The position numbers and the translations under genes are program-made. A stretch of DNA of 64,000 nt from Patescibacteria group bacterium. GTDB taxonomy: Bacteria > Patescibacteriota > Saccharimonadia > CAILAD01 > JADZBC01. Below are positions 5,311-20,666 of the stretch, one piece after another. Position 1 is the first letter of the stretch; each line of letters starts with the position of its first letter. The notes beneath the pieces were generated by a model, which was not told the DNA's origin, did not search any database, and saw only the letters and a list, made by a program, of their open reading frames with translations. Where the stretch lies: the NCBI GenBank assembly GCA_052034495.1, contig JBPOIL010000001.1:14-64013 (forward strand). Direction: 5' to 3'.

Positions 5311-5348
5311 AAAAAAAGGACCTAGCAATTACGCTGGGTCCTTCTTCG
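5311..5348 (+). terminator. hairpin terminator AAGGACC-N13-GGGTCCTTCTTCG (member of a repeated terminator motif family)
   Basis: Stem AAGGACC/GGGTCCTT then TTCTTCG, with an A-run on the other side. A similar element lies at 20635-20666 and a degenerate copy at 17247-17298. Confidence 0.5.
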
Positions 5349-5382
5349 TATATAGAAGAAGTTTATTGAAATTAAATTATTG

Positions 5383-5430
5383 CAAAAAAAACAGACCCTC
5401 CGTCCGGGCCCCGAAAGGTCCGGACGGCGA
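5383..5430 (-). terminator. strong hairpin + T8 terminator on minus strand (TCCGTCCGGGCC ... GGTCCGGACGG)
   Basis: 11-bp GC stem followed by TTTTTTTT on the minus strand. No minus-strand CDS lies upstream of it. Confidence 0.45.
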
Positions 5431-6688
5431 GCCATGGCAGCAACCGGCGCTGCAGCGTACCTCCGAGCGTTCCCGCGCTCGAGCCGCAATTCAGCCATGG
5501 GTGGCTGAAACAGGAGTTCGTACTCTCCTGCGCTCCTCGGGGGCCTAGGCCCGCGCCGAGAAGATTGTGGTCCCTGCACCCGATCGCTGGGCGGCGGCTC
5601 CACGCTTAGTCTGCTTCGGGAGCAGAGTCAGAAGCGCAACGCGGCCACCTTCTTGGGTGATTGCGTAAGGATCGACACGATTGCCCTAAGGCGCTCGATT
5701 GACCCCCGTGCATGTACGGGTGCAGGGACGTTTTGGACACCGAAGTGCCTCGAATCGTGAGCCCAGCTTAGGGGCGTCCGGGCTCTCGAGTGCCCTTCTT
5801 CCCCACAGCCGGCCAGCTGCTGGGACTCACGGTTTTGTGCGCAATTATGCGCATAGAGAGGACCCCTCCTCACACGCTATGATGCGGGGAGCTCACCCGA
5901 ATCATAGCGCTTGCTACTTTGCCGATTGATGGTCGGTGTTTTGCTGTGATTCGGGGGTAACTGTACACGGAGCCCAAGGGCTCAGCGTGTAGCGATGGAG
6001 CTCCCCTGGGCTGCTTGGGTATCAGGGACGTCGGCCCTCTACCTAGCGCGGTGGCCGGCCACCTGGCCCAGGGGGAGCAATTGTGCGCAGAGCCATTTAA
6101 GTCTCAACACGCGTCGAGAGGCCCAGCGGGTATTCGATACTAGTTTTGCTGACCACCTGGTGGGTGGGGCTCCACATATTGCGTACCGAGTTGGCCAACT
6201 ACCCCGCATGGGCACATCTTTACGAACTAATGCCTCAAGGAACTAAGCCGATTATATTCCCCGCGATAATTACCTGTCAAACGTAATCACTTTGCAGCTA
6301 ACCCGACCTTGGAGCAACAGGATCAATGAGTGCGAGACTTCAGCTTCGGCGAGGACTTAGCGTAAGCGATCCCGCAGCCGAATGCTCGTAAGTCGAAGCA
6401 TGAGACGAATCCTTGTTTGCGAACCCGTGGTCGGGAATACTTTTGACTACTTTTGGTATCTTCAAAAGTAGTAATACATAAAGCCATATTTCACTAAGTC
6501 ATTCGTTCTTTTGAAAGGGCCAAAAGAACCTAGAGCCCTTGCGACATAGGGCTCACATCAAGGAGTATCTGTTTGTTCTCGCCTATAATGTCGCTCCCAC
6601 TGCAAGTTTGAGGACTCTCGTGGTTAGCTCCGTCTAGGCTCTGAACTCCAGACTTCCTGATGTTCGAATGTCGCGGTTTCAGCGGCAG
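5431..6688. other. ~1.3-kb ORF-free region, GC-rich (5431-6250) then hairpin-rich (6250-6688); candidate structured ncRNA(s) or decayed genes
   Basis: No ORF longer than 85 aa in any frame despite ~60% GC. Perfect hairpins at 6445-6470, 6513-6537 and 6543-6565. Not classifiable by eye. Confidence 0.3.
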
Positions 6689-7744
6689 CTAGTAAAAGAG
6701 TTCTTTCTTAATTTTGAACGAATAGGTCGTCGCGAGCCGTTCACCATACTTGGTCCACTTATCATACTTAGCTCGGTCAATTGGTAGATTGTAGACCCCA
6801 ACGTATTCGGTAACTTCTGGGTTAAAGCCAGATTTGAACTGCACCAAGCTCGCAAGCGGGTGCGCTTTGTTCTCGAGTTCACTTTTGGGCGGCATGCCGT
6901 GCAGGTCGTACTCCTCCACTCCGCGCTCCTTAAGCCACTTCATGACTTCCCACTGCATCAAATACGGCGCCATTAAGTTCGTTTTACTACGCGTCGAGCC
7001 GCCGTCCTTATATAGCCCCTTTTTGCCCAGATACAGAGCGAATAGTCCCGAAAGAACCTCCCCTTCGTGCTCAGCAAAGAACAACTGCCCCATGCCACCG
7101 TCCACGTACGCCCTCCAGAAGCTTTCCAAGTAAGACTGGTCGCGCATATAGAACCCAGCGCGGCCCTGTGTAGCCTTAAGCAGCCCGTACATGGTGTCCA
7201 TATTCTCTTTGTTTAGCTCCACCGGTCGAACCGTAACGCCTTTGCGCGCAGCGAGCCGGATGTTATAGCGAGTCTTCTGCTTAAAGCTGGCGATAATATC
7301 GTCCTCACCAGGACGTAAATCAACCAACGTGGTCGATTGGTTCCACTGCAGATTAAACCTTGATTTAACCAACCCGAGCTTTTCCAGCCTAGCCTTCGAC
7401 GCATCCTCCATGAGCAAATCTGGTTCAATTTTGACCATGAAAACACCTTTGTTCTTCACGTATTCACCCACTAAACCAATGAGCTCTTTGAGCTGGGTAA
7501 TGTCTTTTACACCTGGTCCTTTTGGGGTATACCAGATTTCGCCAAGCATCGGCACCTTGCGGGTTAGGAAGGCAACTTCGATCTTCGCACCATCCTTGAG
7601 CTCGGCCACAGCGTAATGCGCCGGCCATTTATGGGTAGCCTTAAAGTCCCCGTATGCCCTGGTCTGTAGTATGTTCCCGCCATCAGGGTTATTGATAATG
7701 TCTTTGTCCCAGGCATTGAGCTCGTCAATTGTTGCTTGGTGCAT
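6689..7744 (-). CDS. FemAB-family peptidoglycan interpeptide-bridge aminoacyltransferase
   Basis: FemAB-like C-terminal pattern (LYLGKKGLYKDGGS...LMQWEVMKWLKERGVEEYDLHGM...FKSGFN). Confidence 0.65.
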   Translation of the reverse strand: MHQATIDELNAWDKDIINNPDGGNILQTRAYGDFKATHKWPAHYAVAELKDGAKIEVAFLTRKVPMLGEIWYTPKGPGVKDITQLKELIGLVGEYVKNKGVFMVKIEPDLLMEDASKARLEKLGLVKSRFNLQWNQSTTLVDLRPGEDDIIASFKQKTRYNIRLAARKGVTVRPVELNKENMDTMYGLLKATQGRAGFYMRDQSYLESFWRAYVDGGMGQLFFAEHEGEVLSGLFALYLGKKGLYKDGGSTRSKTNLMAPYLMQWEVMKWLKERGVEEYDLHGMPPKSELENKAHPLASLVQFKSGFNPEVTEYVGVYNLPIDRAKYDKWTKYGERLATTYSFKIKKELFY

Positions 7745-8713
7745 CTAGACTACCTTCTTTAGCAATGAATATAGCTTGTACTTGCTAGCCTTGAGTGGAA
7801 TATCCCAGGTGCCGACTGAACTTACTGTGTCGCCGCCAACTGACTTCTTGAACTTCGTGTGTCCTGCCCAGGGGTGACTCGCTGGCGCGCCTTCGGGCGC
7901 CACACCACCGTAGTCAAAAGCCTTGAGCCACTTGGCCTGCGCGTCCATTATCATCCACCACAGCAGCGCCACCGCTGCTTTGTGCTTATTATTAAGCTCT
8001 GGATATGTGCCAGCAAACACATAGTAGCGCGTGCCGCCAAAGTCGATGCAAATTGCTCCAGCAACTTTTTGATTTTCATATTCTGCAAAATACAGTTTGG
8101 CGGCTCCAGTGGGCATAAGGCTCTTTGCCATAGTGTGATAATAACTATCTGGTTGTGGGCTCCAACCAGCACGCTCGGCGGTAGCGCGCTGCATAGCCAC
8201 AAACTCATTCATGTCCGACTCGTCACTGCTAATTACGAACTTAAGCCCGCGCTTAGCAGCCGTATTAATTAAGTTACGATTGCTCGGCGACATACCATGA
8301 CGAATGTCCTGCTCGCTTTGAGTAATATCGAGGATCATCCGGTGCGCCGGCTGCATGTCAGCCACACGCTTGGCCCCCAACTTACGCAAGCTTGCTTCGC
8401 CAACTTCCAGCCTCATCGGCTCAAAGCGCACAAAGTCTACATTATGAATCTTACCGGCATCGCACAAACTTTTTAGCGCTGTGCGCAAACTCTTACCGTC
8501 GACCGCAGTTGGCCCATAGGCTGCATACAGATACTTGAATCCTAGTCGTCCATTACGAATCGCTGCCTGCCATTGCCAGCCATCGCCTTCACCCAACAGC
8601 ACCTGGCGATCCTGCCCGTTTTGGAATTCTGCCCAAAGAGAAGACTGGAACAAATGCCCACCCTTTCTAGCAAGGTTCTTGTCCCAGTCTTTTGGTAGTT
8701 CTACGAGCGTCAT
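7745..8713 (-). CDS. FemAB-family peptidoglycan interpeptide-bridge aminoacyltransferase (tandem paralog)
   Basis: Pattern YYVFAGTYPE...ALLWWMIMDAQAKWLKAFDYGGV...HTKFKKSVGG. Stop/start abuts the downstream paralog. Confidence 0.65.
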   Translation of the reverse strand: MTLVELPKDWDKNLARKGGHLFQSSLWAEFQNGQDRQVLLGEGDGWQWQAAIRNGRLGFKYLYAAYGPTAVDGKSLRTALKSLCDAGKIHNVDFVRFEPMRLEVGEASLRKLGAKRVADMQPAHRMILDITQSEQDIRHGMSPSNRNLINTAAKRGLKFVISSDESDMNEFVAMQRATAERAGWSPQPDSYYHTMAKSLMPTGAAKLYFAEYENQKVAGAICIDFGGTRYYVFAGTYPELNNKHKAAVALLWWMIMDAQAKWLKAFDYGGVAPEGAPASHPWAGHTKFKKSVGGDTVSSVGTWDIPLKASKYKLYSLLKKVV

Positions 8714-8749
8714 AGGCCTTATTGTAGCAGAGTGCTAGCTGTATAAGCC

Positions 8750-19861: not shown

Positions 19862-19933
19862 TATATGGCAATTCTATCTACCGCACCAGGCTAGCTTGAG
19901 GAGGCAAAGTCAGTCTAGGTTAAATCGAAGGTA

Positions 19934-19962
19934 TTGACCAACTAAGCCCATTATGTTATTAT
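19934..19962 (+). promoter_or_regulatory. sigma70-like promoter TTGACC-17-TATTAT
   Basis: TTGACCaactaagcccattatgtTATTAT. Confidence 0.4.
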
Positions 19963-20018
19963 TTCAGTCTTGTTCGGGGAAACCGTAGTACCCGACTAGA
20001 GCCCACAAGGGGAATCAA

Positions 20019-20570
20019 GTGATCAAGCAGTTGCTGCAGAGCGTGCTCACCATCCTGAGTGCGATGAAGACCAAGGTGGTCGTCAAGGCGACGATCTCCG
20101 CCGACGAGACGATCGGCGCCGACGCCACGGCGAAGACCCGCTTCGACCACATCACCACCTCGCTCCACACGATGGCCACGAACATCGCGGCGATCATCGA
20201 TCCCGAGACGTCGTTCGCCAAGGAGTGCACCAAGGACACCTCCGGGACGATCCCGTTCGGGTTCTACTTCCCGCTCATGGACGGCACGCGCCTCGAGCTC
20301 GAGTTCGGCGTCACGACCATCGGCTACACGCCGACGGCGCGCGACATCCACGAGATGGTGGCCGAGGGCATCGAGCCGACGATCGACCTGATCGGCAAGC
20401 TCATGGGGCAGGACAAGACGGGTGAGGAGATCGAGTCCTGGAAGCGCTCCTCGATCGAGGGCATCCACGAGCAGCTCGGCCTCCCGATGCACCACAGCGA
20501 GCTCGTCGGCGCCACCACCGGCGGCTCCGGCAGCGAGGGCGGCGGGCACGCCACCAACCTCGACGGCTGA
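20019..20570 (+). CDS. hypothetical protein (183 aa), ~64% GC
   Basis: GTG start with AAGGGGAA RBS. High-GC third-position codon usage unlike neighbouring genes. Terminated by twin hairpins. Confidence 0.5.
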   Translation: MIKQLLQSVLTILSAMKTKVVVKATISADETIGADATAKTRFDHITTSLHTMATNIAAIIDPETSFAKECTKDTSGTIPFGFYFPLMDGTRLELEFGVTTIGYTPTARDIHEMVAEGIEPTIDLIGKLMGQDKTGEEIESWKRSSIEGIHEQLGLPMHHSELVGATTGGSGSEGGGHATNLDG

Positions 20571-20594
20571 CCTTCGGGTCAACCACGGCAAAGG

Positions 20595-20666
20595 GGCCGG
20601 GGGAGCGCGTCTCCCCCGGCCACGCGCCACCCATAAGGACCTTTCGGAAGAAGGGTCCTTCTTTCG
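20595..20666 (+). terminator. twin hairpins: GGCCGGGGGAG-cgcg-CTCCCCCGGCC then AAGGACC-N11-GGGTCCTTCTTTCG
   Basis: The second hairpin belongs to the repeated terminator family (see 5311-5348). Confidence 0.5.

Follow-up and report, generated by a model that had tools for sequence, protein, structure and literature searches.

Vertical inheritance of low-copy hairpins, predicted to act as terminators, alongside small genes of a Saccharibacteria lineage

Intergenic palindromes that recur within a genome are well described for several bacterial groups, among them the repetitive extragenic palindromic (REP) sequences and bacterial interspersed mosaic elements (BIME) of enterobacteria, the Correia elements of Neisseria, and BOX and RUP of Streptococcus pneumoniae, and they can act as terminators or mRNA stabilizers. 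Such families reach tens to hundreds of copies per genome and occupy non-orthologous sites between strains, and miniature inverted-repeat transposable elements (MITEs) carry terminal inverted repeats and target duplications. Here we consider three hairpins, termed A, B and C, in a 64 kb stretch (the window; 49.5% GC, with about 11 short stretches at 60-70% GC) of contig JBPOIL010000001.1 from a Patescibacteria group bacterium of the Saccharimonadia. A lies between two small open reading frames (ORFs), ORF1 and ORF2, B follows ORF2, and C follows an orphan gene, referred to as the C gene (Table 1). A first-pass annotation had proposed a dispersed repeat family at the ends of GC-rich islands, possibly spread by a REP/MITE-like element. 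Unlike the REP and MITE families, the hairpins are present in three copies, all fixed beside particular genes, and on the evidence of sequence and conservation they are best described as a low-copy, vertically inherited terminator family and no REP/MITE element. More specifically, we find it likely that A, B and C are Rho-independent terminators, each closing a small, separately promoted transcription unit.

The resemblance to intrinsic terminators, bidirectional and tandem-hairpin forms included, extends to the 10-11 bp GC-containing stem, the short loop (GNRA in C), the U-rich 3' tract, the A-rich 5' flank (in B), the placement after stop codons or between units, and the stem-preserving covariation. 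In contrast to a simple terminator, the U-tract is interrupted (UUCUUUCG), and the C terminator together with about 60 nt upstream is conserved above the preceding gene, which is unusual. Integron attC sites are likewise imperfect palindromes directly 3' of small, promoterless-looking ORFs, and two palindromes bracket ORF2; however, no R''/R' core sites (RYYYAAC/GTTRRRY) and no attI were seen, no integrase appeared among the ORFs scanned, and the loci show synteny and vertical descent. GC-rich terminator hairpins that lack a U tail ('I-shaped') are known from Actinobacteria. The G-run/C-run hairpins that precede A and C are similarly very stable, without U tail, and placed after genes with an actinobacterial-style GC content at third codon positions (GC3), but here a second, conventional U-tailed hairpin always follows, and the genes are without detectable actinobacterial homologues.

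Three copies had been claimed at first pass. B and C are present where they were reported, whereas the third, here D, is no family member, and A had been missed. A was found on reading the sequence around B, and it reaches 34.6 bits (E = 2e-8) with a covariance model of hairpin plus tail. B and C each form an 11-bp hairpin. The outer stem is the same in both, as is the tail CTTCTT(T)CG, while inner stem and loop are completely different between the two; A and B have the stem GACCTAGC..GCTGGGTCC in common, without any difference. The pattern AAGGACC-N(5-35)-GGTCCTTCTT occurs above chance, with two matches in the window (5316-5346 and 20635-20663) against 0.00 expected from 100 shuffles. Folding z-scores of the modules range from -4.3 to -4.9 (0 of 200 shuffles equally stable), with stems of 10-11 bp. 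The copies begin 106 nt (A, from ORF1), 22 nt (B, from ORF2) and 65 nt (C, from the C gene) after the preceding stop codon. That each copy lies 3' of a GC island holds for A and C, which follow genes of GC3 0.91 and 0.98, but not for B, where the GC3 of ORF2 is only 0.59, or for D, which follows a gene of about 52% GC.

Table 1. Positions, strands and sequences of the hairpins, promoter-like sites and genes discussed in the text (window coordinates; loops in lower case)
Feature	Position	Strand	Sequence	Remarks
Copy A	5065-5099	+	AGAGACCTAGC-ctaagt-GCTGGGTCCTC, tail ATTCGTT; as RNA AGAGACCUAGC-cuaagu-GCUGGGUCCUC, then AUUCGUU	New; between ORF1 and ORF2, 12 nt 5' of the ORF2 start codon
Copy B	5316-5348	+	AAGGACCTAGC-aattac-GCTGGGTCCTT, tail CTTCG; as RNA AAGGACCUAGC-aauuac-GCUGGGUCCUU, then CUUCG	Preceded by an A-run; end of the ORF1-ORF2 unit
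Copy C	20635-20666	+	AAGGACCTTTC-ggaa-GAAGGGTCCTT, tail CTTTCG; as RNA AAGGACCUUUC-ggaa-GAAGGGUCCUU, then CUUUCG	11-bp hairpin, GNRA loop (GGAA); end of the C gene
Hairpin D	17266-17298	+	GGGCGACTTAG-aatac-CTAGGTCGCTT (17266-17292), tail CTTTCG; as RNA GGGCGACUUAG-aauac-CUAGGUCGCUU	Stable fold; after the CDP-alcohol phosphatidyltransferase gene
Promoter-like site of the ORF1 unit	4690-4718	+	TTGACA-17-CAAAAT	Predicted to drive the unit with ORF1, A, ORF2 and B
ORF1	4828-4959	+	..FKFGG..DTAAxRGAPE..	43 aa, ribosome binding site (RBS) GAAGGAG, GC3 0.91; conserved small peptide gene
G-run/C-run hairpin of the A module	5016-5049	+	GGGGGTGGGC-ttcg-GCCCACCCCC	From folding; aligns with the equivalent C-module hairpin
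ORF2	5112-5294	+		60 aa, RBS AGGGAG; flanked by A and B
Terminator of the convergent noncoding unit	5385-5431	-	CCGUCCGG..CCGGACGG, then eight U	Contains inverted GGACCTTTCGG
Promoter-like site of the C gene	19934-19962	+	TTGACC-17-TATTAT with TG	Same TTGACC promoter upstream of orthologues
C gene	20064-20570	+		168-aa orphan (183 aa from GTG 20019); GC 66%, GC3 0.98
First two hairpins of the C 3' untranslated region	20568-20621	+	UGACC-uucg-GGUCA; GGCCGGGGGAG-cgcgu-CUCCCCCGGCC	Stop-codon hairpin; G-run hairpin

The terminator-like character noted earlier is borne out, as each copy combines a stable hairpin with a U-rich tail after a stop codon, and a promoter directly follows C. Read on the minus strand, B is a textbook terminator (GGUCCUUUUUUUG) with seven U in a row. 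On the plus strand the tails are interrupted, reading UUCUUUCG in C, UUCUUCG in B and UCAUUCGUU in A, and a simple terminator scan of this strand called D and a small hairpin formed from the tail of B (5341-5361) and left A, B and C uncalled. C would set the orphan gene, with its strong promoter, apart from the Pirin gene, whose extended -10 element (TGCTATCAT) lies directly 3' of C; in the related locus L004 (loci of relatives carry L numbers) a full promoter follows C. B would end the ORF1-ORF2 unit and would do so bidirectionally, facing the terminator of a convergent unit; since an A-run precedes B, it could also stop transcripts arriving from that minus-strand unit. A is probably a partial (leaky) terminator, or alternatively a processing or stability hairpin just ahead of the ORF2 RBS, and its weak tail suggests that part of the transcription runs on into ORF2. 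Part of the resemblance among the three would lie in a terminator pattern, made up of A-rich 5' flank, GGAC-type stem and a tail as in C, that arises independently in many bacteria. Actual termination of transcription, and the leakiness of A, are what we infer from these features.

Conservation lends further weight to this assignment. The 3' untranslated region (UTR) of the C gene, about 100 nt long, has three hairpins, C being the final one, and all three, as well as the tail of C, are kept in five orthologous loci, where the 3' UTR is 75-86% identical to that of the window, compared with 54-73% for coding DNA and 30-65% for the proteins. L011 has a compensatory change in its G-run hairpin (G-C to A-U), and L004 and L017 have one (C-G to U-A) in the terminator hairpin. 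For the terminator hairpin, 97.7% of the cells are paired across eight sequences (the C orthologues, A and B), a paired fraction and covariation score reached in 0 of 500 shuffles, and sliding the partner by one column lowers pairing to about 62%. For the comparison of all 11 hairpins, pairs were tabulated by script, as a single MAFFT alignment failed to bring the 3' arms of the C type and of the A/B type into the same register. Orthologues of A and B occupy the same positions in L147 and L143. A is identical in L147 and differs in L143 by one U.G pair replaced by U-A, while in the L143 copy of B the stem segment GGACC/GGUCC is replaced by GGGCC/GGCCC, which amounts to a compensatory exchange of A-U for G-C, and the tail is shorter. 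A and B are not evolving in concert, because only B changed in L143. Judging by retention in place and the compensatory changes, the hairpins are therefore inherited with their genes and under selection for pairing.

The copy number points in the same direction. With filters off, the hairpin-plus-tail model finds only A, B and C significant in the window, the next matches being the reverse strands of the three and generic terminators. Within the loci of relatives (65, 38 and 56 kb; about 160 kb, partly redundant), only orthologous positions score, one site per locus; C is always found after a member of one gene family, and in L143 and L147 the ORFs that precede A and B correspond to those of the window. 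Presence of A, B and C alone in the window, and at orthologous sites alone in relatives, is not the behavior of a REP or MITE. The REP/MITE-like spread considered earlier thus finds no support in three copies per 64 kb that are passed on at fixed positions along with their genes and carry compensatory substitutions, and the same outer stem and tail also arise as hairpins in unrelated metagenomic organisms.

Could the hairpins nevertheless be the ends or recombination sites of small mobile cassettes, REP/MITE- or attC-like, with ORF2 inserted between duplicated copies A and B? We deem this very improbable. It would fit with ORF2 being flanked by direct hairpin repeats with identical stems, with L139 and L142, which are without ORF2 and have a single related hairpin (ATCCTAGCT..AGCTGGGAT; as RNA AUCCUAGCU..AGCUGGGAU) in a unit that ends with a canonical terminator (CCCAGCC..GGCUGGGAUUUUUGUUUU), and with L147, a mosaic whose leader and ORF1 are L143-like and whose 3' half is window-like. 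But none of the three window copies recurs at a non-orthologous site in relatives, A-ORF2-B is syntenic in three lineages, and A and B show no concerted evolution, only B having changed in L143. Moreover, neither target-site duplications nor terminal inverted repeats beyond the hairpin itself are visible at A, B or C, direct reading of the arms AAGGACC/GGTCCTT gives no RYYYAAC/GTTRRRY core (A reads GTTCAAG), and no recombinase or integron integrase is present among the ORFs scanned around the loci, a subset of those in the window. We instead read A and B as a local duplicate pair flanking ORF2. Whether C belongs with them is a separate matter, on which the idea of a common origin has a measure of support that is confined to A, B and C and does not extend to D. 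A model built on C orthologues alone has window B as its best match outside the training sequences (24 bits, E = 4e-4) and gives A 13 bits. The corresponding model of the full C 3' UTR recovers the A module at 25.7 bits with E = 3e-5 over 170 kb, and with E = 5e-6 over 24 kb, as well as its orthologues in L147 and L143, aligning G-run hairpin, spacer and terminator hairpin, and a weak blastn alignment of the A and C module spans covers 285 nt at 59% identity. Both modules are built from the same parts, with a spacer between G-run hairpin and terminator hairpin and a tail at the end, which suggests common ancestry, and the two 3' modules plausibly derive from a shared ancestral module. The competing possibility, which we hold to be rather unlikely, is that B and C are unrelated terminators, alike only by convergence on an outer stem of 7 bp and on a tail rich in U, A and B alone being truly related. 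Inner stem and loop differ wholly between B and C, and an AAGGAC..GUCCUU terminator (AAGGAC..GTCCTT in DNA) is found at an unrelated place in L142. Among the matches listed for AAGGAC-N13/14-GTCCTTCTTTCG in mixed metagenomes there are 38 unique sequences, none of them a Saccharibacteria C-type copy, and 16 of these 38 extend the stem by at least three pairs against about 5% expected by chance; the looser pattern AAGGAC-N12-18-GTCCTTCTTYS gave at least 120 scattered single matches in viral contigs, which we read as chance noise. Outer stem and tail are hence not diagnostic on their own, because they are also common in unrelated metagenomic sequences. Against pure convergence stand the rank of window B with the C-only model and the alignment of the entire A module, G-run hairpin and spacer included, with that of C. 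In our reading, part of the likeness between B and C is convergence on a common terminator form, and the homology of the A and C modules is what the models suggest.

Several observations weigh against A, B and C being one related set of plain terminators. The U-tracts are short and interrupted, so that termination efficiency is uncertain, and the C 3' UTR is conserved more than a terminator alone would need. The tail of the C-type copies (CUUCUUUCG) is complementary to CGAAAGAAG, that is, to loop plus 3' arm, in every orthologue, which hints at an additional role. With the C-only model, the L147 copy of B reaches 16 bits and the L143 copy is not recovered; B is thereby less C-like in relatives than in the window, and its likeness to C may in part be accidental or convergent. 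The E-values of the covariance models are approximate, and GC-rich hairpins can inflate scores; the copy number applies to the window and the partly redundant loci of relatives. Alternatively, the 3' module of C, perhaps also that of A, would be a functional RNA element besides a terminator, in the class of GC3-extreme orphan genes, with a role in mRNA stabilization, as a 3'-UTR small RNA or in protein binding. The excess conservation of the C 3' UTR over coding DNA, the three hairpins kept with compensatory changes, the conserved GNRA tetraloop, the complementary tail, the similar module after ORF1 and a two-hairpin arrangement after the GC3-rich gene at 1963-2325 (minus) are all compatible with such a function. 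Even so, we regard it as unlikely. Tandem hairpins before terminators are common and need no special role, the covariation support is thin because only six independent sequences are available, and the module after gene 1963-2325 is not recovered at the sequence level by models (8.7 bits). Nor does any Rfam family match; with Rfam 15, only tRNAs reach gathering scores in the window, with nothing in 17100-20750, and a match to BSnc120 was dismissed as noise (23.5 bits against a threshold of 114). Still more speculative, and in our judgment improbable, is that the module of about 100 nt, comprising stop-codon, G-run and GNRA-capped terminator hairpins with a tail able to re-pair with the loop, is a dedicated RNA element marking GC3-extreme (0.9-0.98) orphan genes of one Saccharibacteria clade and controlling the stability, processing or fate of their mRNA. 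An adjacent noncoding unit of about 860 nt, described below, could then be part of the same undescribed RNA-based system. On balance we retain the assignment of A, B and C as likely terminators of small units.

D, reported earlier as a degenerate copy, is an unrelated hairpin having only the tail TTCTTTCG in common with the family, and the pairing proposed for it (AAAGGACC...GGTCGCTT) gives way to the stable hairpin listed in Table 1. This 8-mer tail is not enriched in the window (4 matches against 2.3 expected), and three covariance models failed to recover D (9.6, 10.8 and 10.3 bits; E = 3.4, 2.1 and 0.16). By sequence and predicted fold, D is terminator-like and lies outside the A/B/C family. 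The inverted core described near B is present at 5411-5421, in the loop region of the separate minus-strand terminator of the convergent unit, but is not significant alone, as at least two matches with one mismatch occur in 20 of 100 shuffles. Around D we also observed two canonical terminators, 16505-16543 after tRNA-Arg and 17407-17444 about 100 nt after D, which are 81% identical over 37 nt (AGACYCC..GGGGTCTTTTTTGTTA) and thus make up a second look-alike terminator pair in the region.

The ORF1 unit runs in the order promoter-like site, ORF1, stop-codon hairpin, G-run hairpin, A, ORF2, small hairpin and B. Its promoter and leader are 86% identical in L141, and the long leader is conserved only between the window and that locus. 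Counterparts of ORF1 are located at the same place in L141 (49 aa, 92-241), L139 (9603-9722) and L142 (495-614), the latter two of 39 aa each; the family shares a ..RGAPE.. core and has a variable C-terminal half, and its product is possibly a small secreted or modified peptide. ORF2 homologues form three clusters at 80-97% identity and are syntenic in L143-L147, while ORF2 is absent from L139 and L142. The differences to L143 are mostly synonymous, and by this conservation pattern ORF2 is a genuine protein gene. A long ORF at 4737-5294 was rejected as a gene, since it spans ORF1 out of frame and the real ORF2; this ORF and that at 20019-20570, the two GC-island ORFs, are without similarity and are not paralogues.

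The C gene likewise is, judged from its conservation, the gene of a real protein. Homologues fall into seven clusters with a conserved C-terminal ELVGATxGGSGSEGGG, and the GC3 of the orthologues amounts to 0.91-0.98 in genomes of about 51% GC. Neither the C gene nor the island ORFs have a Pfam, NCBIfam or PHROG match. A search of a genome collection with an alignment of six proteins of the C family returned a single GTDB locus, L138, which is conspecific with L004. Recent transfer from high-GC Actinobacteria was considered and rejected, as a word-limited search of 5.8 billion proteins gave only the seven clusters of homologues, and every retrieved locus has Saccharibacteria-like neighbors. Saccharibacteria are also indicated by other genes of the window, namely a short valine-tRNA ligase, phosphomannomutase, FemAB-type genes and the CDP-alcohol phosphatidyltransferase, and exact protein matches to genes of the window lie on metagenomic contigs. 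A fragment like a tRNA T-arm (GTAGGCTCGAATCCCTACCCCTT) at 14300-14322, situated at the end of a 296-aa ORF and about 200 nt 5' of a pair of tRNA-Ser genes, may be what is left of a tRNA or the scar of an old integration.

Orphan genes with a GC3 of 0.8-0.98 in this genome of about 50% GC are located at 20064-20570, 4828-4959, 1963-2325 (minus), 1-1137 (minus) and 8826-9452, and further GC3-rich orphans of 170 aa and 572-578 aa are present in L141-L143. No Pfam domain was detected in any of these GC3-rich orphan genes that were scanned, either directly or through precomputed tables. Orthologues whose proteins are only 30-65% identical still have the high GC3, and such retention across deep divergence is not explained by simple horizontal transfer followed by gradual drift to genome composition. 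Expression as the cause of the GC richness was rejected, with cpn60, cpn10 and phosphomannomutase at 46-55% GC in relatives, as was a relation of the islands to template and variable repeats of diversity-generating retroelements, no long repeats linking the islands. The gene at 1963-2325 ends in a G-run hairpin (GGGGCGGGG..CCCCGCCCC), a spacer and AAAGAGCCC..GGGCUCUUU followed by UCGUU (1833-1945, minus). Sub-threshold matches to type III hammerhead ribozymes (35.6-37.2 bits against a gathering score of 48.5; E = 1e-4 to 4e-4) at L147 146-199 (-) and L143 3421-3474 (-) adjoin the 3' side of the 578-aa GC-rich gene, whose homologue runs off the left end of the window.

The convergent minus-strand unit (5385-6280) is bracketed by a perfect sigma-70-type promoter, TTGACA-18-TATAAT (6280-6251), and the strong terminator with eight U (5431-5393), enclosing about 860 nt of 61% GC. 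It lacks a period-3 signal and a convincing ORF, matches no Rfam family, and has a folding z-score of -3.4. L143 and L147 have kept its promoter along with several blocks, though with large indels, and conservation in L139 and L142 is partial. For this clade of Saccharibacteria, the unit is a candidate large noncoding RNA.

Aggregated, the repeats reveal no mobile element or cassette system. What they do bring to attention is a clade of about 50% GC that keeps orphan genes at GC3 0.9-0.98 with conserved, structured 3' UTRs. The GC3-extreme orphan genes and the unit of about 860 nt are more unusual than the terminator hairpins themselves, and the latter unit matters as a candidate large noncoding RNA in a lineage with few known RNAs.

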